Of a stretch of 64,000 nucleotides of DNA, positions 4,879 through 63,678 are shown piece after piece. The translations under genes were made by a program, and so were the position numbers. Source of the stretch: an uncultured Actinomycetes bacterium (GTDB lineage Bacteria; Actinomycetota; Thermoleophilia; Gaiellales; JAICJC01); the NCBI GenBank assembly GCA_963737445.1, contig CAVTSO010000001.1, positions 398,551-462,550 on the forward strand, read 5' to 3'. How positions within the stretch are numbered: the first letter of the stretch is position 1; the number at the start of each line of letters is the position of its first letter. Under the pieces are notes generated by a model. The model saw only the letters and a list, made by a program, of their open reading frames with translations, made no database searches and was not told where the DNA came from.

Positions 4879-6510
<1,632 letters not shown>

Positions 6511-33133: not shown

Positions 33134-33633
33134 TCAGCCGAGCGAGACCGCGACCTGCTCCAGCAGGTCGAGCGCGTCCTGCATGCCCGGCTCCATCCCG
33201 GAGTTGATGTGGGCGTCGCGTCCCTCCCTCGTGGGGTGCTCCACCAGCACGGTCAGGAGCGTGCGGCCGTCGCGCTCGGTCAGGGTGAGGGTGTTCAGCG
33301 CCGCGTCCGCTCGCTCGGCGTCGGGAATGCCCTCGTAGACCTCGGTCGAGACGATCCGCTCGTTCGTGACGATCTCCCGGTACTCGCCGTGGAACGCCAC
33401 CTCCATGCCGCTGTCGGTCACGCTCACGTACCGCCAGGCGCCCCCGACTCGCAAGTCGATCTCCGCGATCGTGACCTGGCCGCGGTTGGCGTGCCACCAG
33501 CGCTTGACCAGCTCCGGCGTCGTCCAGGCCTTGTACACCAGGTGCCGGGTGCGTCGAACTCGCGGGTGATCAGGATCTGCCGATCCTCAGGGAGCGTCAC
33601 CGTCGCCGTCCCGCTACTCGTCGCTGCCATCAT
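33134..33633 (-). pseudogene. Aha1/SRPBCC-domain protein, one frameshift
   Basis: The N-terminus MMAATSSGTATVTLPEDRQILITREFDAP is in the frame of ORF 33424..33633. The remainder (VYKAWTTPELVKRWW...) is in ORF 33134..33538. The junction at GCACCCGGCAC (about 33548) looks like a 1-nt loss in a C run. Confidence 0.7.
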
Positions 33634-48474: not shown

Positions 48475-48728
48475 CGCTCATGCTGGCTGCTTGGCAGCCG
48501 CCGTCGTCGTGCACCTCGCCGCGCCACGCCGCGAGGCCCTCGCGCCGCCGCCCGTGCACCGAGCGTCGAGGTCAGAAGGTTCGGCAAGAGCGCCGTCGGT
48601 ACCTCGTCCCCCATGTCAGATAACAAGCTCGCCAGGCCAATCCCCGCCACTCCGCGGGTCATCCACCCGCGCTTCGGCTGGTCGTGCTCCTGTTCGCGAA
48701 TCTCCGCCATCGATGATTCTTCCATCAT
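48444..48728 (-). pseudogene. MFS transporter, N-terminal fragment only
   Basis: The ATG overlaps the stop of the upstream MutS-like gene (ATGA at 48725-48728). GVAGIGLASLLSDMGDEVPTALLPNLLTSTLGA is a typical first-TM region of an actinobacterial MFS. The frame decays after about 60 aa and the CDF-like gene begins. Confidence 0.4.
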
Positions 48729-50311
48729 GCGCCCCCTGACCCGCGGCCGATGGGCGGCAGCTGGGTCACTGTGTGTTCCGGGGCGGCGGGCTGCTTGCGG
48801 GGTGGCTCCGTGGAGCTGGTCGCGGCCGCCGCGAAGATGCGGCGGTAGGAGTCTTGGCCGTGGCTGGTAGGGAGTGGCGGGCCGGGCGTCACCCGGAAGG
48901 TTCGGGTGCCGTCGGACAGCCGTTCGGCGCGCAGGAACCGTGCGCTCTCGATCTTCTGGCGGTAGAGGCTGTCTGCGAGGTCGTAGAGGTGGGTGACGAC
49001 GTAGACCTTCACGCCGACGTCGAGCATCGCGTGGATCACCTGCCGCGCGATCTCGGAGCCTTCACGCTCGTTTGTGGCGGCGAACGACTCGTTGCACAGC
49101 AGCAGGCATGCGGGCGTGATCTGGTCGGCGATATCGCTCATCCGGTGCAGCTCTTCATCGAGCTTGCCCTGCGTCATGGTTGGATCCTCTTCCCGCTTGA
49201 AGTGAGTGAAGACCGCGTTCACAACGCTCGCTTGGTAGGTCTCGGCGGTGACGTACATTCCTGCCTGCATCATCAGCTGGGCCAATCCGAGGCTGCGCAG
49301 GAACGTCGACTTTCCGCCCTGGTTGGCGCCGGTGATGAGCATCAGCCGGGTGCCGTCGGCGTCAATGTCGTTGCCCACGATCGATGCGCTGAGGTGGAAG
49401 GCGAGCGCGGCATCGTAGAGCGAGCGCGCAGACGTATGCTGGGATGAGGTTGGTTCGGGCGTCGGGAAGCAGGTGGGGAGCTGTTTCGCGGTGAGTTGCT
49501 CGTGCAAGTTCAGGCAGCCGACGTAGAAGGCGAGTTCGGCTCGCAGCGTTTTGCAGAAGCTGAGCACGTGATCGGTCGCTTGGGCGAGCGCGTTGGCGAC
49601 GTGGTTGACGCCTCGGCCGCGCAGTTCGGCGAGCGCCTGCATTCCGTACTCGTCTCGGTCTGCGATCGTGAAGCTGTAGCCTGCTCGCCCCGGCGCGGTG
49701 ATGCGCTCGATAAGGCGGCGCGGTTGCGGCTTTCGCAGGACGAAGTTCGTGCCACGGTTGGCTCTGCCCAGCGTCGCGCTGATAAGCGTACCGTCGCGGA
49801 AACGCATCTGCTTGAGCTGGTGATCGATGGTCTGCAGGTAGGCGTCGTCAAGGTCGCGCTGGAGGGTCGCGAAGAGTTCGGTGAACGCTTGTGAGCAGAA
49901 CGCGGAGCTGTGGTCGTCGGCGATTCGCCGAAGCTCTCGCAGGACGTCGGTGAGCATCTGCAGCATGCCGACGGACTTCTGCAAAACCGAGTCGGGAGAG
50001 TCGCGAAACCAGAAGAACCTGGCGTCGCGCTTGGTATCGACGCCTTTGACCGCCAGGGCGTAGAGCTGACGAATGACCGTGGGATGCTCGAGACAGTCGG
50101 CCAGAGCCCGTTGGCGGTAGCGGATCGCGTCGGGGTCGGTCAGCCCGAGCAGCAGGCCGCTCCGCGCGACGCTGCGCAGGTAGTCGTCGCCGCGGGCCAT
50201 CGCATCGTAGAGCGTGGGGAGTTCGAGATCCCGCTCCAGCGCATCGGCGTTTGCGGGAAGCTGCGCCTCGAGGTCAAAGTCACGATCGGGGTGCATCAGG
50301 TATGCCTTCAT
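48725..50311 (-). CDS. MutS-family ATPase (domain V only), paralog B
   Basis: 528 aa. Walker A ITGANQGGKSTFLRSLG, Walker B LLLCNESFAATN, MutS-type TQGKLDEELHRM and VVTHLYDL. No mismatch-binding or nuclease domain is recognisable. Confidence 0.8.
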   Translation of the reverse strand: MKAYLMHPDRDFDLEAQLPANADALERDLELPTLYDAMARGDDYLRSVARSGLLLGLTDPDAIRYRQRALADCLEHPTVIRQLYALAVKGVDTKRDARFFWFRDSPDSVLQKSVGMLQMLTDVLRELRRIADDHSSAFCSQAFTELFATLQRDLDDAYLQTIDHQLKQMRFRDGTLISATLGRANRGTNFVLRKPQPRRLIERITAPGRAGYSFTIADRDEYGMQALAELRGRGVNHVANALAQATDHVLSFCKTLRAELAFYVGCLNLHEQLTAKQLPTCFPTPEPTSSQHTSARSLYDAALAFHLSASIVGNDIDADGTRLMLITGANQGGKSTFLRSLGLAQLMMQAGMYVTAETYQASVVNAVFTHFKREEDPTMTQGKLDEELHRMSDIADQITPACLLLCNESFAATNEREGSEIARQVIHAMLDVGVKVYVVTHLYDLADSLYRQKIESARFLRAERLSDGTRTFRVTPGPPLPTSHGQDSYRRIFAAAATSSTEPPRKQPAAPEHTVTQLPPIGRGSGGA

Positions 50312-51903
50312 CGGCCGATGCGGCTCCTCAGCCGCTCAGAGGAGAGCCCGTACTTGTCGGCCAGGGCGGCCGCATAGGCGCGGCCGTCGGCCGGCCGGCG
50401 GACGATCTTGAATGTGCGCCGCGTCGGATCGTCGGAAGCGACGGTCGCTACCAGACTCACCGTCTCCTCCCCCAGCCGCGACAGCTCATCGATAAAGGTG
50501 ACCCAAACGGTCGCACAGCCCACATCGACGATACGCCGCAGGACCTCGCTCCCCAAGTAGACGGCGTCGGCCAGGGTTGTCGACGCAAATACCTCGTTGA
50601 GCACCAGGATGCTGCGATCGGTCGCGTGCTCGAGGATTTCGCGCAGCCGCACGAGCTCGTTGTCCAGCCGGCCGCGCAATGTCGAGATGTCCTCCTCCTC
50701 CTCAAACAGCGTGAAAATGTGATCAGCGAGCACGAGCTGCGCTCGGCGTGCCGGAACAGGCACGCCGAGGCTGGCCAGATAGTGGAGTTGGCCGAACGAC
50801 CGCGCGAACGTGGTCTTGCCGCCCTGGTTTGGGCCGGTGACGACGAGGATCCGCTCGGCGCCGCGAAGCATGAAGTCGTTGGTGACGAGTGTCGAGCCGC
50901 CGCCGGCGAGCTTGGTCGCGAGGGCGATGTCGAAAGCGCCTTCGGCCGTAACGTCTCGCAGCTGGGTGGAGACGCTGGGATAACTAAAAGCAAGGTCCGG
51001 CGTCTGGAGCGTGTCCATGTACTCCAGGTATGCGAGGTAGAACTGCAGTTCACGGTCGAACCGGGTGATGCGCGGATCGGGGAATCCGGCCTGGCGGGTG
51101 CAGAACTCCCCGAGCGCGGCGAACTCAGTCGGAAAGAGGCGGCTGACGAGTTGCACGATCCGCGCTTCGACGTGGTCCATCGAACCGGAGTCGGGAACCC
51201 TCACCAGGTGATCCTCGGCGTCTCCCTGGCGGAACCGGGCAAACGTCTGTGCCACCTCGACGGTGTAGTCGGCCTCGCCGTCGTAGGCGCGAACGGTGAC
51301 ACGTCCACCCTTGATCCTCGTCGTGTACCTCACCCGTGCCAGGCCGTCGAGCACGTCGCGAACCTCGTGGACGAGGACCCCGAAACGATCGGATGAGCGG
51401 TATCCGGCGAGGTAGTCGCGCAGTGCGCAGAATCCCTGCGAGGTGAGGTCAACCACGGCCAGCCCGTCGGTCAGCCGGCTGACCGCGTCGCAGTAGATCG
51501 ATGCGGCATCAAGGAACCAGCGCTGCTTCTCCTGTGGGTATCGCTGCTTCTCGGCGAGGGCGAGGTACTGCCGCATGGTTCGCATGCTCTGGGCGAACCC
51601 GCTCACCGCGGCTCGGAGGGCATCCTGTTCGAGATCGCGGAACACGTCGTGTCGGGCGTAGACCGCTTGTGGGTCGTCGAGCGGCGTGTGGAAGAAGCGT
51701 TCGAGCGCGTACTCGTCCCGCCCGGCGACGATCCGGCGGACGACCTGATCCAGGTTCAGATCGGCGAAGCAGGCGGGCTCGAGCGGTTCGGCGTTACCCG
51801 ACTCGGAACTGCTGAAGAGGATGCTGTCGAACTCGGCGACGGGCGTCCCATCGGGGGGGACGGGCGGCTGCGAAGGGGTATCGAGGCGATCAGAACGCGT
51901 CAC
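50308..51903 (-). CDS. MutS-family ATPase (domain V only), paralog A
   Basis: 531 aa with a GTG start at 51903. Walker A VTGPNQGGKTTFARSFG, Walker B ILVLNEVFASTT, STLRGRLDNELVRL and WVTFIDEL. Its stop overlaps the paralog B start (ATGA). Confidence 0.8.
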   Translation of the reverse strand: MTRSDRLDTPSQPPVPPDGTPVAEFDSILFSSSESGNAEPLEPACFADLNLDQVVRRIVAGRDEYALERFFHTPLDDPQAVYARHDVFRDLEQDALRAAVSGFAQSMRTMRQYLALAEKQRYPQEKQRWFLDAASIYCDAVSRLTDGLAVVDLTSQGFCALRDYLAGYRSSDRFGVLVHEVRDVLDGLARVRYTTRIKGGRVTVRAYDGEADYTVEVAQTFARFRQGDAEDHLVRVPDSGSMDHVEARIVQLVSRLFPTEFAALGEFCTRQAGFPDPRITRFDRELQFYLAYLEYMDTLQTPDLAFSYPSVSTQLRDVTAEGAFDIALATKLAGGGSTLVTNDFMLRGAERILVVTGPNQGGKTTFARSFGQLHYLASLGVPVPARRAQLVLADHIFTLFEEEEDISTLRGRLDNELVRLREILEHATDRSILVLNEVFASTTLADAVYLGSEVLRRIVDVGCATVWVTFIDELSRLGEETVSLVATVASDDPTRRTFKIVRRPADGRAYAAALADKYGLSSERLRSRIGR

Positions 51904-51924
51904 TGGCTTCCACCGTTGGGGTCG

Positions 51925-51975
51925 CGGTAGAAGCCATCAGCCCTCTCGGGCGGTTTCAGGCGGGCCTCATCGCCT
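51925..51975 (-). promoter_or_regulatory. fluoride riboswitch (crcB motif) aptamer
   Basis: The minus strand reads AGGCGAUGAGGCCCGCCUGAAACCGCCCGAGAGGGCUGAUGGCUUCUACCG. Block for block this matches the well-studied Thermotoga fluoride aptamer GGGCGAUGAGGCCCGCCCAAACUGCCCUGAAAAGGGCUGAUGGCCUCUACUG (recalled from memory). A TACATT -10-like hexamer (51987-51982) lies 6 nt upstream, and the GTG of the MutS-like gene lies 21 nt downstream. Confidence 0.85.
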
Positions 51976-52274
51976 GCTCACAATGTACCCGACGGGAGCG
52001 CTAACCGATGACCATCACCGGACAGCTCGCACGCCGGATCGACCGGGCAGCTGGGGATATCGACACCCGAAGCCGTCCCAGCCGGGGCGTCCACCTCGGC
52101 TGTCGAAAGCCCTCCAAGCTGCATTCGCCCGGTGCGCGATTACCATCACGACACCGGAGGCAAGGCGGTTCGCCTCGTCGAACCCAGCCGCCATGGCGCG
52201 CCGGCCCCGCGGCGTCGGTTCCACCACCACCATGACGGAGCGCCGTCTCCGATCCGCACAGGCGAGGGGTAGGC

Positions 52275-52517
52275 ATGGGACAGCCGGACGACCAGCACCG
52301 TGAGCAGGTGGCGATTCTGTGGTCAGGTGCCGCATTCATGGCCGTGGCGCTGATCGGCCATCTGCTGCTTCCGCCCGTCGACGTCCTCTGGATCGTGATC
52401 GGGGGCTTTGGCCTTCTCGCCGTTCGCGCAGGCCTTCCTCCGGCGGCGCTGAACGGCCGGTCACGGCCCTTACGGCTCGGCTATAGTGGGCGCGGACGCG
52501 ATGAGGCTCGCGCTTAA
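52275..52517 (+). CDS. possible small 2-TM membrane protein
   Basis: GAGGGG lies 5 nt before the ATG, and two hydrophobic helices are present. However, the 3' end overlaps the promoter and aptamer of the plus-strand riboswitch, so the ORF may be spurious. Confidence 0.3.
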   Translation: MGQPDDQHREQVAILWSGAAFMAVALIGHLLLPPVDVLWIVIGGFGLLAVRAGLPPAALNGRSRPLRLGYSGRGRDEARA

Positions 52518-52546
52518 CCGCCCCCGTGGCTGATGGCCTCTACCAC
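52488..52546 (+). promoter_or_regulatory. fluoride riboswitch (crcB motif) aptamer
   Basis: GGGCGCGGACGCGAUGAGGCUCGCGCUUAACCGCCCCCGUGGCUGAUGGCCUCUACC has the same conserved blocks (GAUGAGGC, AACCGCC, GGCUGAUGGCCUCUAC). A TATAGT -10-like hexamer (52482-52487) lies immediately upstream. Confidence 0.85.
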
Positions 52547-52650
52547 TTTGGGTAGACCACGCCACGAAAGGAGCAGCGGTTGGAGCATATGCGAGTCGCA
52601 ACGGCCGACCGGCGATCACTGACGACGGCACCGATCCGTAGGCTGGCGTC

Positions 52651-53692
52651 GTGAACGTCCCGGCGCTGAAGCTGACCCTGTATTTCAACGAGACGCTCCG
52701 CTGCCGCGGTCATCTCGCGGCGGACCTGCTGTTGGACATGTTCGAGCACGCAGACGTCATGGCCAGCGTGCTCCTCCGCGGCATCGAGGGATTCGGTGCT
52801 CACCACCGACTCCACACCGACCGCTTCGAAAACGCGAGCCTGAACCAGCCGATCGTCGCCGTCGCCATGGATCGTCAGGATCGCATCGAACACTGGCCTC
52901 TCGGGTCGACGAGATCCTCGAAAGCGGGCTGGTCACCACCGAACGCGCCTGGCTGATCGGACAGCCCAGCGAAGGCGTCCTGCCGGCGGTCGCGTACGAC
53001 TCGGTCAAGCTGACCGTCTACTGCGGCCGGGCCGACCGCGTCTGGTGGACTGCCGTCCTACCGGGCGATCATCGATCATCTCCGCGCGAGTGGTGTCGAG
53101 GGAGCGACGGTGTTCCTGGGAGTGGACGGAACGGTGCATGGCCGCCGAGAGCGCGCCGCCTTCTTCTCGCGCAACCGCGAGGTGCCATTGATGATCGTCG
53201 CCGTCGGCCAACCCGACGCCGTCGCACGAAGCCTGCCGGGGATCCGCCGGCTCGCGGACAGGCCGATCATCACCGTCGAGGGTATCCAGATCTGCAAACA
53301 GGACGGCGAGCTGATCGCCGCTCCCACCCCGGCGCCGGGTCTCGGAGCGCGGCGGCATCTGGCGGAAGCTGATGATCCACGCCGCCGGCGACACCCACGT
53401 CGGCGGCGAATCGCTGCACTATCAGCTGGTCGAGCAGCTGCGCCGCATCGACGCGGCCGGCGCGACGTCACTTCGCGCGATCTGGGGGTATCGCGGTCAG
53501 GCGCCTGCCCACGGCGACTCGGTCTGGTCGATCAGACGCACGAGCCCTGTGGTCACGATCGTGATCGACCGCGATGAACGGGTCGGCGCGACCTGGGAGG
53601 TCATCGATCTGCTCACCCGTGAGGCTGGTCTGGTGACCAGCGAGCTCGTCCCCGCCCACCGCGCTCTGGCAGCGGAGGCCAGTGCCCGATGA
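52651..53692 (+). pseudogene. three tandem DUF190 (PII-like, CrcB-associated) domains in one gene; frame interrupted three times
   Basis: D1 LKLTLYFNETLRCRGHLAADLLLDMFEHADVMASVLLRGIEGFG. D2 VKLTVYCGRADRV/GGLPSYRAIIDHLRASGVEGATVFLGVDG. D3 RKLMIHAAGDTHVGGESLHYQLVEQLRRIDAAGATSLRAIWGYRG. There are no stops between domains in the corrected reading. Frame changes are at about 52897, 53040 and 53355. Confidence 0.7.
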
Positions 53693-53708: not shown

Positions 53709-55337
53709 GTGCCGTATCTGAGCGACTGGGTGATCCAGCTGTTTCAGGTCGGAACGGTGCTCGTGCTGGGCCCGCTGGTGATGGGCATCATCGCCCGCGC
53801 CGAGGCCATCGTCCAGATGCGTCGTGGACCGCGGCTGCTCCAGCCCTACTACGACATCGCCAAGTTCTTCCATAAGGAGACGGTGCTTCCGGGCGACGCG
53901 GGCGTCGTCTTCCGCGCGGCGCCCTACGCCTCCTTTGCCTGCTACATGACGGTGCCGCTGCTGATCCCGGTGCTGACCAACTTCCCGCTCCAGCTCGGCT
54001 ACATGGGCGACATCCTGGGCGGCGGCTTCATCCTAGCCCTGGCCAGCTTCTCGGTCTCCCTGGCCGCGCTCGACACCGGCACCCCCTACACCCAGCTCGG
54101 CTCGAGCCGCCTGCGAAGCTTCGGCGCGCTCGGGGAGCCGACGATCCTGGTCGTCATCTTCACCGTGGCGCTGATCACCCACACCGACCTGCCCTACGCC
54201 CTGGTCAAGACGCTGGAGGGATCTGCCGCCGAGATCACCCGCCCCGCGCATCTGCTGGCCGCAGCTGCCTTCTTCCTCGTCATCCTCGCGGAGACCGGCC
54301 GAATCCCGATCGAAAGCCACGGCTCCACGCTCGAGTTCGGCATGATCGAGGAGGCGCGCACGCTCGAGCATTCCGGCCCCGGCTTCGCGCTGCTGCGATG
54401 GGGCTCGACTATGAAGCAGCTGATCCTGTTCGTGATCTTCCTGAACGTGCTCGTCGCACCCTGGGGCCTGGCCGCCGATCACCGCCTCGACCACGTCCTG
54501 CTCGCGATCGTGATCCTCTTCGCAAAGACGCTTGGGATCGGCCTTGTGATCGTGGTGATCGAGTCGGCCTACGCCAAGCTTCGGCTCTACAAGATTCCCG
54601 AGTTCACCGTCGCGGGCTTCCTGCTGGCTGTGCTGGCGGTGATCACGTTCGTCTTCCAGGAGAGCTTTCAGCCCGGTCAGCTGACCGTCTTTGCAGGCAC
54701 GGCGACCGTGATCGCGGTGGTCGTGCTGCTGCTCGAGTTCGTGATGCTTCGAAGCCAGGATGTCTGGGAGCTGCTTCGTCTCTACGGCCTGGCGTCGCTT
54801 CTGATCGGCGTGCTCGCCTTTTGCGCCGCCGCGACCGGCCACGACCGGGGGCTGTATGTGCTGGGCGCAGTCACGATCGGCTTCAAGGCCCTGCTCGTCC
54901 CCCTCGGCGTCGGGTTCCTCCTGCGCACACTGGAGGTGCCCGAGCGGGTGCCCTCCTCGATCAGCGCGCCTTCCGCAGTGCTTGCAGGCATCGTGCTTTC
55001 CGGCTTTGCGTTCTACACCCTGTCTCGCCTGAACCTGCCCGAGCCGGGAACCTTGCCGCTGGCGGCGTTGGCGGTCGCTATGGCGGCCGTCCTGGTCGCG
55101 TTCTTGCTCATGATCGTGCGGCCCTATGCGCCGTCGCAGCTGCTCGGATTCCTGGCCGTGGAAAACGGCGCGACGCTCGCGAGTCTTGTCGTCGCGCCCG
55201 GTCTCCCGCTGATCCTGGCGGTGCTGCTGCTGTTCGACGTGCTGATCGGCGTCGTCGTGTTCGTCGTGCTCGTCCAGTACCTGGCGATGGAGCGCAGCTC
55301 CGTCACTACCCACGTCCTTGACAGGTTGCGGGGCTGA
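53709..55337 (+). CDS. fused HycD/HyfC-like (NuoH-type) and HyfE-like (NuoK-type) membrane subunit
   Basis: 542 aa with a GTG start. The N-terminal roughly 310 aa carry RRGPRLLQPYYDIAKFFHKE...ETGRIPIE (NuoH/HycD family). The C-terminal roughly 220 aa form a multi-TM HyfE-like region ending AVENG...LLLFDVLIGVVV. Confidence 0.8.
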   Translation: MPYLSDWVIQLFQVGTVLVLGPLVMGIIARAEAIVQMRRGPRLLQPYYDIAKFFHKETVLPGDAGVVFRAAPYASFACYMTVPLLIPVLTNFPLQLGYMGDILGGGFILALASFSVSLAALDTGTPYTQLGSSRLRSFGALGEPTILVVIFTVALITHTDLPYALVKTLEGSAAEITRPAHLLAAAAFFLVILAETGRIPIESHGSTLEFGMIEEARTLEHSGPGFALLRWGSTMKQLILFVIFLNVLVAPWGLAADHRLDHVLLAIVILFAKTLGIGLVIVVIESAYAKLRLYKIPEFTVAGFLLAVLAVITFVFQESFQPGQLTVFAGTATVIAVVVLLLEFVMLRSQDVWELLRLYGLASLLIGVLAFCAAATGHDRGLYVLGAVTIGFKALLVPLGVGFLLRTLEVPERVPSSISAPSAVLAGIVLSGFAFYTLSRLNLPEPGTLPLAALAVAMAAVLVAFLLMIVRPYAPSQLLGFLAVENGATLASLVVAPGLPLILAVLLLFDVLIGVVVFVVLVQYLAMERSSVTTHVLDRLRG

Positions 55338-55339
55338 CG

Positions 55340-56815
55340 ATGAGCTGGTTGCTGGTCGCCATGATCGTCGTGCCGCTTGCAGTCTCGATCGCCGCGCTTG
55401 TTGTCCATCCTGGCGTTGCCCAGATGCTGACGGTCGCATCGGGCTGTGCGGCGCTGGGGATCGCCGTGCTGGCGGCGTTCGCCGTACGCGACGGAAGCAC
55501 GCTGCACGCCCTCGGAGGCTGGATCGGCCTGGATGCCCTCGGCGCGGTGTTTTTGTTGCCGACGGCGTTTCTGTACGCCGTCTCCGCCGTCTACTCGGTT
55601 GGCTACATGCGCGGCGAGAGCCGCGAAGACTACGCCCCCTTCGCGCGCCGCTACACCGTCTATCTGAACCTGTTCTGCCTGACGATGCTGCTCGTGCCGC
55701 TGGCCACCGACTTCGCCAGCCTCTGGATCGCTGTCGAGCTGACCACGATCATCTCCGCGCTGCTGGTGGCACTCGACCGCACGGACGCCGCTCTCGAAGC
55801 TGCCTGGAAGTACGTGCTGATCGCCTCCGCCGGGTTGGGCATCGCACTGATGGGTCTGATCATCCTCTATGCAGCAGCCACCGCGCCGCTCGGGTCCGAC
55901 CATGTGCCCCGCTTCGCCGACTACACACGCGTCTCGGCCAGCCTGCACCCCGACATCGTCAAGCTCGCCTTCCTGCTGGCCGTGGTCGGCTTCGGAACCA
56001 AGGCCGGCTTCGCGCCCATGCACACCTGGCTGCCCGACGCACACTCAGAAGCGCCGACGCCGGTATCGGCGCTCCTGTCTGGGTCGCTCCTCGCCAACGC
56101 GTTCTACGCCATCCTGCGCTTCTACCAGGTGGCCGTGGCCACCGGCGGACACGCCTTCCCCGACCGGGTGCTGGTCGTCTTCGGCGTTGTCTCGTTGGCT
56201 GTCGCTGCTGTCTTTGTCATGCGCCAGGAGAACTACAAGCGTCTGCTTGCCTACTCGTCGATCGAGCACGTCGGCGTGATCGCCGTGGGCGTCGGCTTCG
56301 GCAGCCCGCTCGCCATCTTCGGAGCGCTGTTGCACGTCGTCAGCCACGCCGCGGCCAAGGGTCTTGCCTTCCTTGGCGCGGGGTCGATCCTACGCCGCTA
56401 CGACACCAAGCTCGTCGGCAACGTCGGCAACGCCGTCGGTGTCCTCCCGTGGAGCGGTCCGATGTTCCTGTTCGCCGGTATCGCTCTCTCCGGCCTGCCG
56501 GTGTCAGGCGTCTTTCGAAGCGAGTTCCAGGTCGTCACGGCCGGGTTCGCCAACCCCTCCTACGTTGCCGTCGCACTGCTGATCATCCTCGTGAACCTCG
56601 CCTTCTTCGGCGTGATGTGGCACATCGGGCGGATGACGCTGTCCGCCGACACCCCCGTAGCCCCCACGCACACCGGCGAGACCAGTCGATGGATGGTCGC
56701 CGCCATGATCGGCTGCCTGGTGGTGCTGGTCGGCTTGGGCATCCATGTTCCCGGCAGCCTCTCGGATCTGCTCGGACACGCGGCCAGCAGTCTCCGCCAG
56801 GGAGTCGCCAGATGA
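55340..56815 (+). CDS. NuoM/N-type antiporter-like subunit (HyfF/HyfD-like)
   Basis: 491 aa. WIAVELTT, GFGTKAGFAPMHTWLPDAHSEAP and KRLLAYSSIEHVG. Confidence 0.85.
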   Translation: MSWLLVAMIVVPLAVSIAALVVHPGVAQMLTVASGCAALGIAVLAAFAVRDGSTLHALGGWIGLDALGAVFLLPTAFLYAVSAVYSVGYMRGESREDYAPFARRYTVYLNLFCLTMLLVPLATDFASLWIAVELTTIISALLVALDRTDAALEAAWKYVLIASAGLGIALMGLIILYAAATAPLGSDHVPRFADYTRVSASLHPDIVKLAFLLAVVGFGTKAGFAPMHTWLPDAHSEAPTPVSALLSGSLLANAFYAILRFYQVAVATGGHAFPDRVLVVFGVVSLAVAAVFVMRQENYKRLLAYSSIEHVGVIAVGVGFGSPLAIFGALLHVVSHAAAKGLAFLGAGSILRRYDTKLVGNVGNAVGVLPWSGPMFLFAGIALSGLPVSGVFRSEFQVVTAGFANPSYVAVALLIILVNLAFFGVMWHIGRMTLSADTPVAPTHTGETSRWMVAAMIGCLVVLVGLGIHVPGSLSDLLGHAASSLRQGVAR

Positions 56816-58294
56816 GCGAGACCCGACAGATCCCGGATCAGCCGCACGATCCCTTCGTCTCGATCGGCGTTTCCGAGCAAGGCGACGCGTCTGCCGAAAC
56901 GAGGCTGAGCGTGCCGCTGGCCGACCTGGCGTCAGCGGCGGCCGAGTTGGCCCGCCAAGGCCGGTTTCTGACGCTCACCACGACCAACCGGCCGGGCTCG
57001 CTGCTGGTCGGCGTTCGCGATCCGCGGCGAGATCGTCGAGGTCGTCGCCACGGCGTCGGAAACGCGCTCCTACCCAGCAGTCTCGAGCGGGGTTCCAGCC
57101 GCCGGCTGGGCCGAGCGCGAGGCACGCGACGCCGCCGCGTTCCAGCCCGACGGGCTGCCCGACCCGCGGCCGTTCCTGAATCCCGACGTCGACGCCGTCG
57201 CCCCGCGCTTGGTCGGCGACGACGCGTTCGTGATGCCCTATGGCCCGGTGCGTTCCGGTGTCTTCGAAGCCATCCAGTTCATCATCGAGACCGGCGGCGA
57301 GGATGTTCCCCTGCTCGACGTCCGCACAGGATTCAAACATCGCGGCCTGGAACGGCGGATGGTCGGCCTGACCGCTCGCGACGGCGCGGTCGTCGCAGAG
57401 CGCGTTGCCGGCATCTCCTCGGTCGCCCATGCACTGGCCTGCTGCCAGGCGGTCGAGCGTGCGCTGGGCGTCACGCCCCCCCGGCGGGCTGAGCTGTGGC
57501 GTGCCGTGCACGCCGAGCTGGAACGCATCGCCAACCACCTGCACTGCGCCGCACAACTGGCCGAGACAACGGCGCTTCACCTCGGCGTCGCCCGGTTCGG
57601 GATCCTGAAAGAAGACGTGATGCGGCTGCGAGCCGAGCTCTGCGGCAACCGGTTCGGTCGCGGAGTCGTGATCCCCGGCGGCGTCACCGAGTTCGACGCC
57701 AACACGACCGACACGCTGATGGACGCGATCGAGCATCTCGACACCGACCTTCGCCGCGACCGGCGACTGCTGGTGGGGACCACATCCTTCACCGACCGGC
57801 TGTTCGGCACGGGTCACCTGCCGCGCGACCTGGCCGAACGCTACGCGGTCGTCGGCCCCGTCGCCCGCGGCTCCGGCGTCTCGACCGATGCCCGCTTCGA
57901 ACGACCCTACGGCGCCTACCGCCGCCTGGGCTGGCAACTGGTCACTCGGACCGCCGGCGACGCGATGGCACGCCTCGAGGTTCGCCTCGGCGAGATCACA
58001 CAGAGCATGCACATCATCCGCCAAGCGGTCGACGCGCTCAGGCGCACCGAACCAACTGTCGCCAGCCCGCTGCCGCCGGCCGACGGAGCGGCCTGGGGCT
58101 GGGCCGAAGCGGCGCAAGGCGAGGTGCTCTACCGCCTCGAGATCGACGCCGGTCGCATCCGACACGCGCACATCGCCTCGCCGTCGCTGCGCAACTGGCA
58201 GGTCTTCGCCCACTGCTTCCCACGCGACGTGCTGACCGACTTCGGCTTCATCGAACACAGCTTCCAACTCACGCCGGCCGGCGCGGATCGGTAG
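56812..58294 (+). pseudogene. HycE/HyfG-like (NuoC-NuoD fusion) 'large subunit' lacking all four Ni-Fe cysteines; one frameshift
   Basis: The ATG overlaps the previous stop (ATGA). The frame changes at about 57008 (GSLLV/AFAIRGEIVEVV). L1 reads ERVAGISSVAH where hydrogenases have ERxCGxCxxxH. The C-terminus reads SFQLTPAGADR* where they have DPCxxCxxR. Confidence 0.8.
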
Positions 58295-58299
58295 ACGGC

Positions 58300-59067
58300 A
58301 TGCTCGAATGGATCTGGAGAGGACTGCGAAAGGGACGGGTCACCAGCCGCTACCCCGACCAGCCCGAGCAGGCGCCGCAGCTCCTGCGCGGACGCATCAG
58401 CGTTCTCAACGCCGAGGGCGCCGACCCCGGCCTCGCCACGATCTGCCCGACCGGCGCCATCGCCGTCGAGGAGACGACCGTCAACGTCGACCGCGGCCGC
58501 TGCATCCTGTGCGGGGTCTGCGTCGAGCGCCACCCCGACCGATTCGCCTTCCACCCGGTCCACGAGACGGCCAGCCAGCATCGAGAAGCACTCTGGGTCC
58601 GCCCGCACGCCACGGCCACACCGAACGGAGCGGCACCGCCGCTGGGCCAGCGCTTCCCCGCGCTTCGCCGCTCGATCCACATCCGCCACGTCGATACCGG
58701 CTCTGACGGCAGCGAGGAGTGGGAGATCGCCGCGCTCACCAACCCCTACTACGATATGCAGCGGCTCGGCCTCTTCTTCACCGCCGCCCCCCGCCACGCC
58801 GACATCCTGCTCCTCACCGGCGTCGCCACCGCGGCGATGCGCGAACCGCTGTTGCGGACGTGGCAGACGATGCCTGACCCCAAGGCCGTTGTCGCGGTCG
58901 GCACCGACGCCTGCTCAGGCGGCCTCGCCGGACACAGCATCGGCGCCTCCGGAGTGGCCGGCCTTGTCCCCGTAGACGTGTTCGTGCCGGGCTCGCCGCC
59001 GACGCCGATCGCCATCCTCCACGGCCTGTTGCTCGCCGCGGGACTTCTGACGGAGAACACCGGATGA
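58300..59067 (+). CDS. fused HycF-like (ferredoxin) and HycG/NuoB-like 'small subunit', Fe-S ligands mostly lost
   Basis: 255 aa. Of the ferredoxin part only ICPTGAI and CILCGVCVERHP remain (4 Cys). The NuoB part reads HVDTGSDGSEEWE, GTDACSGG and PGSPPTP where the family has GSCNGCE, GACA and PGCPP. Confidence 0.8.
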   Translation: MLEWIWRGLRKGRVTSRYPDQPEQAPQLLRGRISVLNAEGADPGLATICPTGAIAVEETTVNVDRGRCILCGVCVERHPDRFAFHPVHETASQHREALWVRPHATATPNGAAPPLGQRFPALRRSIHIRHVDTGSDGSEEWEIAALTNPYYDMQRLGLFFTAAPRHADILLLTGVATAAMREPLLRTWQTMPDPKAVVAVGTDACSGGLAGHSIGASGVAGLVPVDVFVPGSPPTPIAILHGLLLAAGLLTENTG

Positions 59068-61028
59068 ACGCAACCCTGCTCGCCGCGCTCGCCCTGCTCG
59101 TCGCGGCCATCCCCGTCAGCTACCTGTCGCGCCGAGTCGCGATGGCGGCGTCGCTGCTCGCCGCGGTTTGCATGACCGTCGTCGGTTTCAGTGCGGCCGG
59201 CGCCTGGGGCACCGCACATGTCAGCCTCGGCGACTGGCTCGGCTTCGGCGAGACAACGCTGCGCGTCGACCGGCTGGCCGGCGTCTTCCTCGGCCTGGCA
59301 GGCCTGCTCGCCGTCTCCGTCACGCTCCGCTACCTGGAAGCGCGGCCGAGCCGAGTCGTCTGCGCGCTGCACGCCGCGCTGCTGCTCGCAGTGATCGCCG
59401 TCATCACCACCGATCAGGCCTTCGCCTTCCTCCTTGCCTGGGAGGCACTCACCGTCGTCATCTACCTGCTCGCAAGCGCCGACCGAACGCGCGCCGGGAC
59501 ACTGGTCTCCGGCTACCTGACCGGCGCGCTCAACAAGATCAGCGGCGCCGCGCTGCTGGCAGCGTTCGGGCTGCTGTATGGCTCCACGCACAGCCTCCGC
59601 TTCGCCGACTGGCACACCGCCGCCCTGTCGTCCAACACCCGCAACGCCGTCTTCGTCCTGCTGGTCGCCGGCTTCGCCGCCAAGATCGGCATCCCGCCGC
59701 TGCAAGCAGCCCTGCCGGCCAGCTATGAGGCGGCGCCCAGCCCCGCCTCGGCGACGCTCTCGATCGCCCTCGTCGGCGGCTTCTACGGCCTCTGGCGGCT
59801 GGTCTACGAAACGCTCGCCCCGGCCGCGCTGTGGTGGGGAGAGGCACTCCTGGTCATCGGCAGCATCACCGCCCTGCTCGGCATCATCTATGCGATCGCC
59901 CAAAGCGACATGCGCCGCTTCCTCGGCTTCTCAAGCGTCGAACACACCGGCATCACGCTGCTCGGCCTCGGCACAGCCCTGCTCGGACAAGCCACGCATC
60001 ACCGGGAGCTGATCGCCGCCGGCATCCTCGCCGCCACCCTCCACGTCATCGCCCACGCGATCGGAAAGACGCTCGCCCTGCTCTCCGCAGATCGCATCGC
60101 CGAGGCGACCGGCACCGCCAAGCTCGGGCCACTCGGCGGCCTCTCCCGGCACCTCCCCGCGTCGTCGGTCGGTCTGGGGCTGGCGACCGTCACCCTCGCC
60201 GCGCTGCCACCGTTCGGCGGCTTCGTCAGCGAATGGTTCACGCTCGAAGCGCTGCTGCAAGGCTTCCGCGTCGACAACACGCTCGCTCGGCTGCTGATGG
60301 CGCTGGCCGCGGCCGCGCTCGCGCTGACCGCAGGGCTGGGGCTGCTCGCCTTCGCCAAACTGTTCGGCTCGACCATCCTCGGCCAAGCACGCTCCCGGCT
60401 GCCCAAGCCGGTCGAATCCGGCCTCCCCATCGGCCTGGCACTGCTCGCCACCTGTGCGCTGCTGCTGGGACCGATCGCACCATGGGAGATCCGGCTGCTC
60501 GGAACCGCGCTCACCCCGACCCTCGGCTTCGACCCCGCCACAACCGCGATCAGCCATCCACTCGTCCTGGGCCCCGTCTACTCCGGCTTCTCCGTGCTCG
60601 CCCCCACCTGGCTCTCGATCGCCCTACCCAGCTTCGCAATCGCAGCGGCACTGATCGTCAGGCTGGCGCGCCGCTCACCGGCGAGGCGCGCAGCACCATG
60701 GGTCTGTGGCACCTCACTCCCACCCGAGCTCGTGCAGTACACCCCCTCCGGATACTCCAACCCGATCCGGGTCGTCCTGCGCAGCGTGTACGGCTTCCGC
60801 CGCCGCGTGGTGCCGATCCCCGGCGAACCCAACCCTGGCCGGTTCGAGTTGCAGACCTCGATGGTCGCGCTCGTTGAAGACCGCATCTATCGCCCGCTCA
60901 CCGACACCACGCTTGCGATCACCGCCCGGGGCCGCAAGCTGCAATCGGGCCGGCTCGGCTCCTACCTCGCCTACATCCTGATCGTGCTTCTGATCGCCCT
61001 CGCCCTGATACCAACCCTCACCCACTGA
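59064..61028 (+). CDS. NuoL-type antiporter-like subunit (HyfB/HycC-like)
   Basis: 654 aa with about 16 TM helices. WEALTVVIYLL, FAAKIGIPPLQAALP and RRFLGFSSVEHTG. The C-terminal extension is typical of HyfB. Confidence 0.85.
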   Translation: MNATLLAALALLVAAIPVSYLSRRVAMAASLLAAVCMTVVGFSAAGAWGTAHVSLGDWLGFGETTLRVDRLAGVFLGLAGLLAVSVTLRYLEARPSRVVCALHAALLLAVIAVITTDQAFAFLLAWEALTVVIYLLASADRTRAGTLVSGYLTGALNKISGAALLAAFGLLYGSTHSLRFADWHTAALSSNTRNAVFVLLVAGFAAKIGIPPLQAALPASYEAAPSPASATLSIALVGGFYGLWRLVYETLAPAALWWGEALLVIGSITALLGIIYAIAQSDMRRFLGFSSVEHTGITLLGLGTALLGQATHHRELIAAGILAATLHVIAHAIGKTLALLSADRIAEATGTAKLGPLGGLSRHLPASSVGLGLATVTLAALPPFGGFVSEWFTLEALLQGFRVDNTLARLLMALAAAALALTAGLGLLAFAKLFGSTILGQARSRLPKPVESGLPIGLALLATCALLLGPIAPWEIRLLGTALTPTLGFDPATTAISHPLVLGPVYSGFSVLAPTWLSIALPSFAIAAALIVRLARRSPARRAAPWVCGTSLPPELVQYTPSGYSNPIRVVLRSVYGFRRRVVPIPGEPNPGRFELQTSMVALVEDRIYRPLTDTTLAITARGRKLQSGRLGSYLAYILIVLLIALALIPTLTH

Positions 61029-61465
61029 TGTTCCAACAGATACTGATCGCCTGGGACGCCTCGCGCCCCGCCGTCCACGCCCTCGACGTCGCCATCGACC
61101 TGGCACGACGCTACGACGGAGAGATCGTCGCCGTCAGCGTCGCCCTGGCTCCCACCCATGCCGAGACGAGGGAGGACCGAGACGAGTCGGTCGAGGCCGC
61201 GCGGGAACACCTGGAAGGCACGCTCGCCGCGTTGCGAGACCGCGCCGATCGCGTCGGAGTCCCACTCGAGCACGTCATCATCACCGGCAGCCACCCGGCC
61301 GAGGACATCCTGCGCTACGCCCACGAACACGGCACGGACCTGGTGATCGTCGGTCGCCACTCGAGCAGCCGCGCAGGGCGGATGCTGCTCCGCGGCGTAT
61401 CCGACCAGCTCGCCCGCTCCGCACAGCTACCTGTACTGATCGTCGGAGAACCCAACGGTGGGTGA
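61028..61465 (+). CDS. universal stress protein
   Basis: 145 aa. ILIAWDAS...DLVIVGRHSSSRAGRMLLRGVSDQLARSAQLPVLIV. The start overlaps the HyfB-like stop (TGATG). Confidence 0.85.
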   Translation: MFQQILIAWDASRPAVHALDVAIDLARRYDGEIVAVSVALAPTHAETREDRDESVEAAREHLEGTLAALRDRADRVGVPLEHVIITGSHPAEDILRYAHEHGTDLVIVGRHSSSRAGRMLLRGVSDQLARSAQLPVLIVGEPNGG

Positions 61466-61483: not shown

Positions 61484-61939
61484 ATGAGCGCCGACGTCGC
61501 CTTCGACGAATCGCCAACCGCAGCCAGGCGCGCGCCTCGCCGCCCGTTCACGACCGGCTCTGAGCGCGTCGCGATCGCGCTCGGCGGTGCACTTGGCGCC
61601 TACGCACGCGTCCTCGTCGATCAGGTGATCGGCCCGCCCGGACAGGGATGGCCATGGGCGACCTTCACCGCAAATACCGTCGGCGCGTTCCTACTCGGCT
61701 ACTTCACCGCCCGGCTCCTCGAGCGACTCCCACCATCGACATACCGCCGTCCGATGCTGGGTACAGGCTTCTGCGGAGCGCTGACCACCTTCTCGACACT
61801 GCAGTTCGAGCTCTTCAGTCTCCTGCAATCGGGGCGATACCTGCTGGCGACGGCCTACGCCGCGGCATCCGTGCTCGCCGGGTTCGCAGCCTTCCTGGGC
61901 GCGATATGGCTCGTGCGAAGGGCGCGGGTCTTGTGGTGA
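61484..61939 (+). CDS. crcB: fluoride channel subunit CrcB/Fluc (1 of 2)
   Basis: GGALGAYAR...WATFTANTVGAFLLG...GFCGALTTFSTL. Confidence 0.9.
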   Translation: MSADVAFDESPTAARRAPRRPFTTGSERVAIALGGALGAYARVLVDQVIGPPGQGWPWATFTANTVGAFLLGYFTARLLERLPPSTYRRPMLGTGFCGALTTFSTLQFELFSLLQSGRYLLATAYAAASVLAGFAAFLGAIWLVRRARVLW

Positions 61940-62307
61940 ACATCGCCACCTACGCGTGGCCGCTGATCGGCCTGGTCGGAGCGGTCGGAGCGACGCTTCG
62001 CGTCAGCGTCGACAACGCCGTCAAACGGCGCACCAGCGAGCGATTCCCCTTCGGCACGCTCGCCGTCAACCTCAGCGGAGCGCTCGCGCTCGGGATCATG
62101 CACGGCCTTGCCGCCCAGGGAACCATCGCACTCCTCATTGGGACGGCCGGCCTCGGCACCTACACAACCTTCTCCACCCTCGTCTTCGAAACCGAGCGAC
62201 TGCTCGAAGAAGGAGACCGACTCCTGGCCGGAGCGAACCTCCTGGGATCGATGATCCTCGGCCTGGACGCCGCGGCCCTGGGCTGGGCACTCGGACACGC
62301 TCTATGA
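61936..62307 (+). CDS. crcB: fluoride channel subunit CrcB/Fluc (2 of 2)
   Basis: GTG 61936 overlaps the previous stop (GTGA). GAVGATLR...FGTLAVNLSGALALG...GLGTYTTFSTL. Confidence 0.9.
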   Translation: MNIATYAWPLIGLVGAVGATLRVSVDNAVKRRTSERFPFGTLAVNLSGALALGIMHGLAAQGTIALLIGTAGLGTYTTFSTLVFETERLLEEGDRLLAGANLLGSMILGLDAAALGWALGHAL

Positions 62308-62507
62308 GCCGACGCAACCGCGACAACGGCACCACATGGCGCCACCTCATCGCCCTCGCCGGCTGGTGGGGAGTGGCCATCGGCGTCGCCGGGCTGATCT
62401 GGCACCGCAGCCTCTACCCACTCTGGATCGCCCTGATCGCCTTCGGGCTCGCCGGAGCCCCGCGACCCATCCTCGACTGGATCAGGGAACACAGGCGGAA
62501 GCAATGA
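62304..62507 (+). CDS. 67-aa two-TM membrane protein translationally coupled to crcB
   Basis: The ATG overlaps the crcB2 stop (ATGA). MSRRNRDNGTTWRHLIALAGWWGVAIGVAGLIWHRSLYPLWIALIAFGLAG... Confidence 0.45.
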   Translation: MSRRNRDNGTTWRHLIALAGWWGVAIGVAGLIWHRSLYPLWIALIAFGLAGAPRPILDWIREHRRKQ

Positions 62508-62614: not shown

Positions 62615-62977
62615 ATGCTGACGGAGATGAAGCGACTGCCGACGATCAACTGCTGCACGCCGCTTGCCGGTTCCTCACTGTCCGATGGCGAGGCGGTGGA
62701 GTTGGAGCGCCTGTTTCGGGTTCTCGGTGATCGCCACCGGCTTCGGATCTTGAACATCCTGTTGCGAGCGGGCGGCCAGGCGGTGTGCGTGTGCGAGTTC
62801 ACCGATCAGATCGGTCTTGCTCAACCCACCGTCAGCTACCACCTCAAGCAGCTGACTGAGGCGGGGCTGCTCGAGCGTGAGAAGCGGGGCACCTTCGCCT
62901 ACTTCCGCGTTCGGGCGGAGGCGATGGAGCAGCTGCAGAGCCTGGTCGAGCCGGCTGCGCTGGCAAAGGCCGGGTAG
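62615..62977 (+). CDS. arsR: ArsR-family metalloregulator
   Basis: LGDRHRLRILNILLRAGGQAVCVCEFTDQIGLAQPTVSYHLKQL, including the CVC metalloid-binding motif. Confidence 0.85.
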   Translation: MLTEMKRLPTINCCTPLAGSSLSDGEAVELERLFRVLGDRHRLRILNILLRAGGQAVCVCEFTDQIGLAQPTVSYHLKQLTEAGLLEREKRGTFAYFRVRAEAMEQLQSLVEPAALAKAG

Positions 62978-63060
62978 CCGGTGGCCGGGCATCTTGGATC
63001 GAGCCGTTTCGCGAGATCGGCACGACCGTGAGCCAGGTGCCCAGCGACTGGAGGTGAGCG

Positions 63061-63678
63061 ATGAAGTACGTCCTGTTTGTGTGCACCCACAACGCCGGCC
63101 GCTCCCAGATGGCGCAGGCGCTCTGGCGCAAGTACGCACCCGGTGACGTGCGCGCCGAATCGGCTGGTCAGACGCCGGCCGAGGCACCGTGGCCAGAGGT
63201 GGTCGAGGTGATGCGTGAGGTCGGCATCGACATCTCCAATCAACGGCCGAAGCGACTTGACCTGGAGATGCAGCTGCACGCCGACTGGGCGATCACGCTT
63301 GGGTGCGGCGGCGCCTGCCCTTACGTTCCCGCGCACGTCGAGGACTGGGAGATCCCCGATCCGCGGGGCGCGAGCATCGAGGCGGTGCGGCGGATCCGAG
63401 ACGACCTCGACCGCCGCGTGCGCGACTTCATCGACACTCGGCTGGACGCGGTGCGCGCGGATCGCACCGCGCACGAGATGCGGCTGGCGCGGATGCTGCC
63501 CGACCTCGACCGCGAGTTTGGAGACACCCACCCGGCCGAGGAGATCCGCGGCTGCGCCGACGCCATCCTTTCGCGCTACGACGACGCACCGGTCCGCTCG
63601 ATGGTGCAGACGATCGCCTTCCGCGAGGTCCGCGAGTGCCTACGCGCCAACCGATGCGCCGCCGTGACGGCCGCCTAG
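63061..63678 (+). CDS. arsC: arsenate reductase, LMW-PTP type, with C-terminal helical extension
   Basis: [17 protein letters not shown] is the CX5R(S) P-loop. [10 protein letters not shown] is also present. About 70 extra C-terminal residues follow. Confidence 0.8.

Follow-up and report, generated by a model that had tools for sequence, protein, structure and literature searches.

Energy-converting hydrogenase-related (Ehr) complexes are homologues of the group 4 hydrogenases that lack the Ni-Fe-binding residues, and their function is not known (PMC6349859, PMC5037454). For the crcB motif, an association with 'formate hydrogen lyase' (FHL) and mutS genes was reported in 2010 (PMC2864571). 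The 'formate hydrogen lyase' association was repeated in 2021 and 2024, and the 2024 review describes a formate-oxidising FHL (PMC11139923). Here we analysed a stretch of 64,000 nt from an uncultured Actinomycetes bacterium (assembly GCA_963737445.1, contig CAVTSO010000001.1, positions 398,551 to 462,550 of the forward strand), called the window in the following, on which a six-gene operon encodes a complex-I/hydrogenase-4-like membrane complex of five subunits and a universal stress protein (Usp). We report that the cysteine ligands of a [NiFe] hydrogenase are absent from this complex and that operons of its kind are regularly preceded by fluoride riboswitch aptamers.

Domains and families were assigned by Pfam and NCBIfam profile searches, and riboswitches by the Rfam model RF01734 with its gathering score of 34. 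All five complex genes (53709-61028, + strand; Table 1) were confirmed with Pfam and NCBIfam, in agreement with a preliminary description of this DNA, made from the letters alone, that had listed a HycD-HyfE fusion, a HyfF-like and a HycE-like subunit, a HycF-HycG fusion and a HyfB-like subunit. In the first of these fusions (product of 53709-55337) the HyfE profile NF008556 was matched over positions 10-216 of 216 with E = 2.7e-9. All NCBIfam matches of the complex proteins fall far below the curated cut-offs; hence, none of the curated families covers these proteins. The genes between 52651 and 62307 (+) are spaced by 19 nt or less or are joined by stop/start overlaps.

Alignments of the ligand positions to HycE-, NuoD- and HycG-type proteins confirmed the cysteine losses that had been suspected from the sequence, starting with all four Ni-Fe cysteines of the large subunit. 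In the first motif (L1) ERVAGISSVAH aligned to DRVCGICGFAH of E. coli HycE (7z0s_E) and to the same motif of MbhL (6cfw_L), and Ala and Ser occupy the cysteine positions. In the second motif (L2) HSFQLTPAGADR matches column for column the KSFELCYSCCDR of cysteine-bearing relatives, and the cysteines are replaced by Thr and Gly. When the PDB was searched with the C-terminal 69 residues of this protein, no alignment extended to L2; the match stems instead from a multiple alignment of the large subunit with 123 near-full-length representatives of a 50%-identity library. The protein ends with the residues that correspond to the ...DR of this motif and has no C-terminal extension.

These replacements are shared by the family. 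The cysteine-free C-terminal motif HSF[GQ]LTPAGADR, or a close variant of it, ends all of the 120 closest homologues, and their last 12 residues are free of cysteine (120/120). A pattern search retrieved the genuine L1 in 58 of these 120 proteins and both L1 cysteines in none; one homologue reads ERVAGIAGCAH, with a single Cys that is not at a ligand position. Cysteine-free large-subunit relatives are numerous and diverse, the L1/L2 cysteines being absent in 77 of the 124 near-full-length sequences of the 50%-identity representative library. The quinone ligands of NuoD are gone as well: aligned to Aquifex NuoCD (7q5y_B), the protein has Gly for the Tyr of RMDY and Phe for the second His of GPLHPGTHG. 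By its sequence, the peripheral arm can accordingly hold neither a [NiFe] centre nor a NuoD-type quinone site.

Homologues carry the names 'formate hydrogenlyase subunit 5' or 'Ni,Fe-hydrogenase III' in public annotation, as would be expected if the operon encoded a formate hydrogenlyase, a true [NiFe] hydrogenase with its cysteines masked by sequencing errors. However, the cysteine-free motifs sit in an uninterrupted 361-codon frame and are kept in the closest homologues from independent assemblies. The alignments refute hidden cysteines, and we assign this explanation a practically negligible probability.

The large-subunit reading frame requires comment in this context. It begins with an ATG at 56812, which overlaps the preceding stop codon, and runs in one frame to ~57010 and then in another. 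Removal of a single extra G in CTGGTCgGCGTTC at ~57010-57011 yields a protein of 493 aa, a length typical of the homologues (491-500 aa), of which the closest has GSLLVAFGIRGEIVEVV at the junction. As the frame is broken within the NuoC-like N-terminal domain and both L1 and L2 come after it, no cysteine is hidden. Mending the break, which the preliminary description (placing it at about 57008) had named as a way in which the cysteines might reappear, restores none of them. In the DUF190 gene ahead of the complex genes, tblastn with intact homologues of ~350 aa located frame changes near 52890, 53010-53040 and 53350; an intact homologue (locus L013, 14328-15401) consists of three DUF190 domains. 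Candidate frameshifts elsewhere were located by a crude GC-frame Viterbi segmentation and then read by eye. An SRPBCC/AHSA1-like gene (~33137-33633, -), an aldo/keto reductase gene (~35829-36544, -) and an esterase-like gene (38627-39260, +) were each found in pieces that lie in two or three different frames. An 'MFD' isolate code is attached to the closest relative, a metagenome-assembled genome (MAG) of the long-contig kind, and we take such MAGs to be long-read assemblies. Because unrelated window genes are frameshifted too, and given the long-read origin of MFD assemblies, an indel error of the assembly is the likeliest cause of the large-subunit frameshift. Such errors are most likely a general problem of this assembly, and gene calls anywhere in the window call for a frame check.

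Compared with the closest relative, the ratio of non-synonymous to synonymous substitution rates (dN/dS) was 0.06-0.33 for all six operon genes, which makes a decay of the operon unlikely. The lowest value, 0.06, belongs to the NuoH-HyfE fusion protein, which is 97% identical in the two genomes. The frameshift in the large subunit and the approximately three frameshifts in the adjacent DUF190 gene could suggest that the operon is what is left of a hydrogenase operon in decay, without function. Such a remnant is very improbable, as the dN/dS values argue against it, gene order and full-length genes are kept in dozens of genomes, the replacement residues are invariant and frameshifts also hit unrelated genes of the window. 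We ruled out pseudogenisation by dN/dS, family conservation and the window-wide occurrence of frameshifts.

The HycF-HycG fusion has undergone a comparable loss. According to alignments to HycG and MbhJ, the cysteine positions of the proximal [4Fe-4S] cluster are held by D139, E142, D206 and S235, so that the earlier count of at least three of four lost ligands in the NuoB-like part was right as to the loss and too low as to its extent, which is four of four. Among 74 homologues from genome loci these four residues are 93-100% conserved, while C208, two residues past the third proximal position, and the motif H130-x-R-H-x-D-x-G-S-D-G-x-E-E-W-E are invariant. No NuoB-type (N2) cysteine is in place, and tandem cysteines are lacking. 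The ferredoxin part has exactly four cysteines, C52(P), C71, C74 and C77, all invariant in the 74 homologues. They are the fourth cysteine of motif 1 (CP) and the first three of motif 2 (CxxCxxC), a ligand pattern that makes up the medial cluster in MBS (PMC8165549). Hence, the early remark that four cysteines remain, enough for one cluster at most, was correct, and the four are the medial set. The distal cluster has lost all four ligands, and ligands are left for one of the two NuoI-type clusters. The medial cluster presumably equals N6b of complex I.

An AlphaFold2 model of this fusion (pLDDT 75.8, pTM 0.79) had HycG, MbhJ and NDUFS7 as its best structural matches and was least confident at residues 139-141. 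Going by the ligand positions, neither the proximal (N2-type) nor the distal Fe-S cluster can be bound, and the medial [4Fe-4S] ligand set alone survives. With ligands lost on either side of this single cluster, the electron path is not continuous.

The family was then followed through genomes. In a 90%-identity collection, 2690 of 8000 scored candidates matched the large subunit with E <= 1e-5, and the matches with a named source came from MAGs of Solirubrobacterales, Thermoleophilia and Gaiellaceae. A scan of one genome per GTDB species gave 308 encoding loci; the neighbourhood counts below refer to the best 80 of these, all from Solirubrobacterales/Thermoleophilia/Gaiellaceae lineages. The gene order HE-F-L-FG-B is complete in 66 of the 80, and a Usp gene directly follows the HyfB-like gene in 70 of 71 loci. 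Both gene fusions, which had been called unusual, are the norm for the clade, and the HycF-HycG fusion extends to sister clades, of which at least one lacks the HycD-HyfE fusion. A CrcB gene is located downstream in 16 of 63 loci and a triple-DUF190 gene in 21 of 63, and a MutS-like pair occurs no more than 10 kb away from the ehr genes in 23/80. The position of the complex genes between DUF190 and CrcB, to which the preliminary description drew attention, is thus true of the window, but relatives mostly have CrcB and DUF190 downstream or not nearby. In the closest relative (locus L001), whose large subunit is 93% identical, neither DUF190 nor CrcB adjoins the operon, and no CrcB gene occurs within the retrieved 21.4 kb of its contig.

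Candidates for an electron donor or acceptor were sought in the same loci. No conserved formate dehydrogenase or redox partner gene was found within 10 kb of the operon in the 80 loci, and a NuoF-like gene was found in none of them (0/80). HyfA, HyfD, FdhF, Hyp and HycI genes are not present nearby. The statement that the window contains neither formate dehydrogenase nor hyp/hycI genes stood up to inspection of its 20 larger ORFs outside the operon, although a 64-kb window cannot speak for the genome and absence from the latter does not follow. A molybdopterin oxidoreductase gene (674 aa; L001 3339-5363, -) was noticed two genes upstream of the ehr operon of the closest relative, on the opposite strand. 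It was rejected as a partner: it is missing from all other loci retrieved and is therefore probably no partner of the complex.

These results bear on the possibility that the complex is still a redox enzyme, in which the surviving [4Fe-4S] cluster and a new, non-cysteine metal site formed by Asp/Glu/Asp/Ser (+Cys208) would catalyse some other reaction and thereby drive ion pumping, with donor and acceptor encoded elsewhere. Purifying selection on the peripheral arm, the invariance of the medial-cluster cysteines and the near-invariance of the residues at the former proximal site speak for it, and a proximal-type site has been re-purposed in MBS and other hydrogenase-related complexes (PMC8165549). 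On the other hand, the distal cluster, where electrons enter in the relatives, has no ligands, proximal cluster and quinone ligands are missing, and none of the 80 loci offers a conserved redox partner gene within 10 kb. We consider such an enzyme unlikely, though it deserves to be kept in mind.

The membrane arm, by contrast, is intact, if not in every detail as it had been described. Of the 'three antiporter-like subunits intact over 5.7 kb', two are antiporter-like, the third being NuoH-like plus HyfE-like, and the length is 5.07 kb; their intactness was borne out by the conservation of charged residues. In the HyfF-like subunit E133, K221, K300, H310, H332, H336, K340 and E395 are at least 95% conserved among 72 homologues, and E133, K221 and E395 align with a conserved Glu, Lys and Lys of MbhH, respectively. 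We assume that these three residues are the positions in transmembrane helices 5, 7 and 12 (TM5, TM7, TM12) of the antiporter fold. The HyfB-like subunit has E127, K207, K335, E390 and E395 conserved to at least 95%. Hence, the Lys/Glu channel residues, for which a check had been proposed, are kept in both antiporter-like subunits. The NuoH-like subunit contains a series of invariant acidic residues. Homologues of MrpB, MrpE, MrpF and MrpG were not found; in their place the operon has NuoH-like, HyfE-like and peripheral subunits. The conserved Glu, Lys and His residues of the membrane subunits are consistent with the ion-translocating role under fluoride or acid stress that was suggested previously.

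The canonical aptamer at the operon head of the window (Table 1) and its leader recur almost unchanged in the closest relative (L001, 6735-6796), where the first ehr gene follows directly; this copy also exceeds the gathering score. For the remaining loci a covariance model, R1, was built from nine Rfam-confirmed aptamers; its second helix was doubtful in RNAalifold, and it served as a detector only, with matches checked against the Rfam model. It gave 129 matches in 1.47 Mb (related loci plus window), often several per locus. Every locus with enough upstream sequence (69/69) has an aptamer within the 150 nt that precede its first ehr gene. The predicted fluoride control is therefore a conserved trait of the family and not an accident of the window locus. 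In nearly all 69 loci, ~45-60 nt separate the 3' aptamer motif GCUGAUGGCU(C/U)CU.. from the start codon; in the closest relative (L001/L002) the distance is ~122 nt.

Most loci possess a variant aptamer, in which P1 reads (C/U)CAG...CUG(G/A) and not GGCG...CGCC and in which an inserted hairpin, whose length varies, separates P1 from P3. In the loci L003-L081 the variant is found ~100-150 nt ahead of the operon's first gene (e.g. L017 ~6375-6470, L016 1961-2043). The Rfam model scores them with 22-26 bits, under the threshold of 34, and standard annotation would therefore miss them. Covariation was observed in the outer P1 pair (C-G in 29, U-A in 20), in pseudoknot pair 2 (G-C in 39, A-U in 18) and in P3 pair 4 (C-G in 43, G-C in 13). 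The inserted hairpin forms clear stems in individual sequences, for which differing stem lengths and bulges hamper a pair count in fixed register.

The 3' tail of the aptamer, ..CUCCUUUCGCG, is complementary to the downstream ribosome-binding site, ..CGCGAAAGGAG. The predicted duplex of both has a mean energy of -19.3 kcal/mol vs -11.8 kcal/mol for shuffled tails and covers the GGAG in 63/69 loci. From this arrangement we infer a translational ON switch, in which the pseudoknot stabilised by fluoride would compete with the masking of the ribosome-binding site. A scan for promoter and terminator consensus sequences revealed nothing above chance, the single terminator-like site on the + strand being no more than expected by chance. 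In case of the window operon, the aptamer and the gene spacing are observed, and from them we infer fluoride riboswitch control of one transcript that would comprise the triple-DUF190 gene, the complex genes and the two CrcB genes. Between aptamer and DUF190 gene, the TGA stop codon of the ORF 52589-52654 overlaps the GTG start codon of the latter; this ORF may encode a leader peptide that is translationally coupled to the DUF190 gene.

The genes behind the other aptamers in the related loci form a typical fluoride regulon, with 18 MutS-like, 10 enolase-length, 4 NUDIX-like and 2 pyrophosphatase-like ORFs. The last three families were identified by eye. Aptamers and genes were paired by a first-ORF heuristic that took wrong frames at some high-GC loci, so that only the larger clusters are meaningful. 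Up to seven aptamer matches were observed within ~21 kb, for instance at L035, L061, L069, L075 and L076, forming dense 'fluoride islands' in Thermoleophilia-type genomes. In these islands the aptamers precede MutS-like pairs, enolase-length and pyrophosphatase-/NUDIX-like ORFs and the ehr operon, and many also contain CrcB and DUF190.

We propose, with a probability of roughly 0.5, that the complex is no hydrogenase and functions as a redox-independent, Mrp-like translocator of protons or cations that helps to keep pH and membrane potential stable in cells stressed by fluoride. After its entry into the cell HF dissociates; F- departs via Fluc/CrcB at the cost of membrane potential and H+ remains (PMC11139923). 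Moreover, Na+/H+ antiporters are the commonest class associated with fluoride riboswitches after the exporters (PMC11139923). In the proposed sequence of events, rising cytoplasmic fluoride would switch the complex on, as its binding to the variant aptamer would free the ribosome-binding site and permit translation. At the same time, entry and dissociation of HF would load the cytoplasm with H+ and the export of F- by CrcB would consume membrane potential. The intact membrane arm could then expel protons or exchange cations and in this way hold pH and membrane potential, and the remodelled peripheral arm might act as a structural or regulatory cap and not as a catalytic module.

Several points weigh against this proposal. 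A net extrusion of protons would need an energy source other than redox chemistry, which the proposal does not supply. Conservation is no weaker in the peripheral arm than in the membrane arm, although a passive cap would seem to require less. That the medial-cluster cysteines are invariant suggests that an Fe-S cluster is retained, for which the proposal offers no role. Nor does it account for the very strong conservation of the Asp/Glu/Asp/Ser(+Cys) pocket, and these points lend some weight to a redox enzyme or to a direct handling of fluoride. The conservation of H130-x-R-H-x-D-x-G-S-D-G-x-E-E-W-E hints at a further ligand or metal site. In addition, two operon genes are frameshifted in the assembly, and the known members of the family all come from uncultured metagenome-assembled genomes.

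The conserved acidic residues allow a further suggestion, which we regard as doubtful: the peripheral arm might have turned from an electron wire into a ligand site, whose former proximal pocket (Asp, Glu, Asp, Ser and the shifted Cys) might bind a hard metal ion, fluoride or both, or sense acidification by HF, and might drive or gate the antiporter-like channels via the NuoH-like subunit. A related explanation assumes that fluoride is handled directly, either by a carboxylate-rich pocket that binds a hard metal and fluoride, or senses HF/F-, and gates the channels, or by an export of fluoride or HF driven by the proton motive force (PMF). It is favoured by the aptamer association in 69/69 loci and by a closest relative with a riboswitch-led operon and no CrcB in the 21.4 kb retrieved. 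It is also favoured by the recurrence of the signature as Asp/Asp/Asp/Ser at the proximal-cluster positions of the sister clade P0245 and by the fluoride context of the separate clade P0248. But it is deduced from residue chemistry alone, and the CrcB channels of many loci already provide export. We also know of no relative in the complex I superfamily that acts as an anion transporter. We therefore hold direct fluoride handling to be quite improbable.

The sister clades differ among each other. The P0248 clade (locus L083), with 43% identity, has a sub-threshold aptamer match of 27.9 bits right before its NuoH-like gene, and the same locus also carries Usp, enolase, DUF190, CrcB and MutS genes. 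In another sister clade (L085), NuoH and HyfE are unfused, Ala, Pro and Glu replace Glu, Asp and Ser at three proximal positions, and the ferredoxin part keeps more cysteines than that of the window clade; no aptamer was detected in the 280 nt available upstream.

Table 1. Features of the fluoride-associated region of the window (positions count from the first letter of the 64,000-nt stretch)
Feature	Position	Strand	Evidence and remarks
Fluoride riboswitch aptamer, canonical, at operon head	52488..52549	+	Rfam RF01734, 39.3 bits vs 34, E = 2.2e-7
Possible leader ORF, 21 codons	52589..52654	+	read from sequence; after GAAAGGAG ribosome-binding site; no Pfam match
Triple-DUF190 gene, ~3 frameshifts in the assembly	52651..53692	+	DUF190 Pfam matches on two ORF fragments
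NuoH/HycD-like + HyfE-like fusion, 542 aa	53709..55337	+	Pfam NADHdh, residues 16-314; NCBIfam HyfE NF008556, residues 335-542
HyfF/NuoM-like antiporter-like subunit, 491 aa	55340..56815	+	Pfam Proton_antipo_M; best NCBIfam match HyfF
Large subunit, NuoC-NuoD/HycE-like, without Ni-Fe cysteines	56812..58294	+	Pfam Complex1_49kDa, NiFeSe_Hases; one-base insertion ~57010-57011
HycF/NuoI-like ferredoxin + HycG/NuoB-like (Oxidored_q6) fusion, 255 aa	58300..59067	+	Pfam, NCBIfam; alternative GTG start 58291
HyfB-like antiporter-like subunit, 654 aa	59064..61028	+	Pfam Proton_antipo_M; NCBIfam HyfB, E = 3.8e-117, below cut-off
Universal stress protein, conserved sixth operon gene	61028..61465	+	Pfam Usp, E = 6e-26
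Two CrcB (Fluc-type fluoride channel) genes	61484-61939, 61936-62307	+	Pfam CRCB on both
Second, divergent fluoride riboswitch ahead of two MutS-related genes	51921..51983	-	Rfam RF01734, 51.7 bits
Two MutS-related ATPase genes of the same fluoride island	50308-51903, 48725-50311	-	partial NCBIfam MutS/MutS2 matches, below cut-off

The first of the two MutS-like genes begins at 51903, behind the divergent aptamer. In the pair (531 + 528 aa) only the ATPase part of MutS/MutS2 was matched, and KamC-like ATPases match it too. Directly 3' of the second CrcB gene follows an ORF of ~66 aa (62307-62507, +) with two hydrophobic stretches and without a Pfam match; a similar small membrane ORF was found downstream of aptamers in L069. 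After the operon, an ArsR-family regulator and a low-molecular-weight phosphatase/ArsC-like gene (62615-63678, +) may constitute an arsenic-resistance module beside the fluoride island. At the other end of the window, a gene for a RuBisCO large chain (576-2585, -) is accompanied by a divergent LysR-type regulator (2082-2957, +); the organism may therefore fix CO2.

Ehr complexes are widespread relatives of complex I and the membrane hydrogenases. The clade described here is an unusually clean case, with an electron path broken at both ends and the ion-translocating arm intact. Because the leader RNAs examined all point to fluoride as the inducer, one can now test what a cofactor-less machine of the complex-I type does. 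The sub-threshold aptamer variant with its hairpin insert means that the fluoride regulons of these soil bacteria are probably under-annotated. Moreover, 'formate hydrogen lyase' is among the commonest fluoride-riboswitch genes and has been read as the sign of a switch to fermentation of formate, a view that needs correction at least in Thermoleophilia-type actinobacteria, where these genes encode no hydrogenlyase. These results would surprise specialists in the evolution of complex I and hydrogenases or in fluoride resistance.

Held against the features that define each of the known systems, the predicted complex qualifies neither as a group 4 [NiFe] hydrogenase nor as complex I or an Mrp antiporter. 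With complex I it shares homologues of NuoH, NuoC/D, NuoI, NuoB and NuoL/M/N and the logic of an L-shaped module, and NuoD likewise is devoid of Ni-Fe cysteines; in contrast to complex I, it has no NuoE/F/G, no quinone Tyr/His, no N2 cluster and only two antiporter-like subunits. E. coli Hyf/Hyc (PDB 7Z0S) provides the best sequence and structure matches of the large and small subunits, and HyfB, HyfE and HyfF are the best NCBIfam matches of the membrane subunits. Unlike Hyf/Hyc, however, the window complex is without the four Ni-Fe and the four proximal-cluster cysteines, and its large subunit does not possess the C-terminal extension for protease processing. The Mrp (CPA3) antiporters resemble it in having two MrpA/MrpD-type subunits with conserved Glu/Lys and no evident redox input, but have neither a NuoH-like subunit nor the full peripheral arm. 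By analogy, we expect Mrp to be the closest model for how the complex might work.

By operational definition the complex is, as predicted from its genes, of the Ehr type, in line with the original classification: it is homologous to group 4 hydrogenases, its Ni-Fe ligands are gone and two Mrp-antiporter-like (Proton_antipo_M) subunits are encoded in the operon. Compared with the Ehr class as defined, the window clade additionally lacks the proximal and distal Fe-S ligands and keeps the medial set alone. It is further distinguished by the conserved Asp/Glu/Asp/Ser at the proximal site, the two subunit fusions, the attached Usp gene and its systematic location behind a fluoride riboswitch. With regard to the crcB-motif regulon, both the formate-hydrogen-lyase-type and the mutS associations occur in the window, but genes of the window type encode proteins that, by sequence, cannot bind hydrogenase cofactors. 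The 'formate hydrogenlyase' of fluoride-regulated gene lists is thus probably not a hydrogen enzyme. A full-text search, whose coverage excluded most subscription journals, found no paper on the loss of cofactor ligands in fluoride-riboswitch hydrogenase genes. The crcB motif was linked to 'formate hydrogen lyase' as early as 2010; to our knowledge, the new part is the ligand loss in an Ehr clade that is stripped further than others and apparently dedicated to fluoride.

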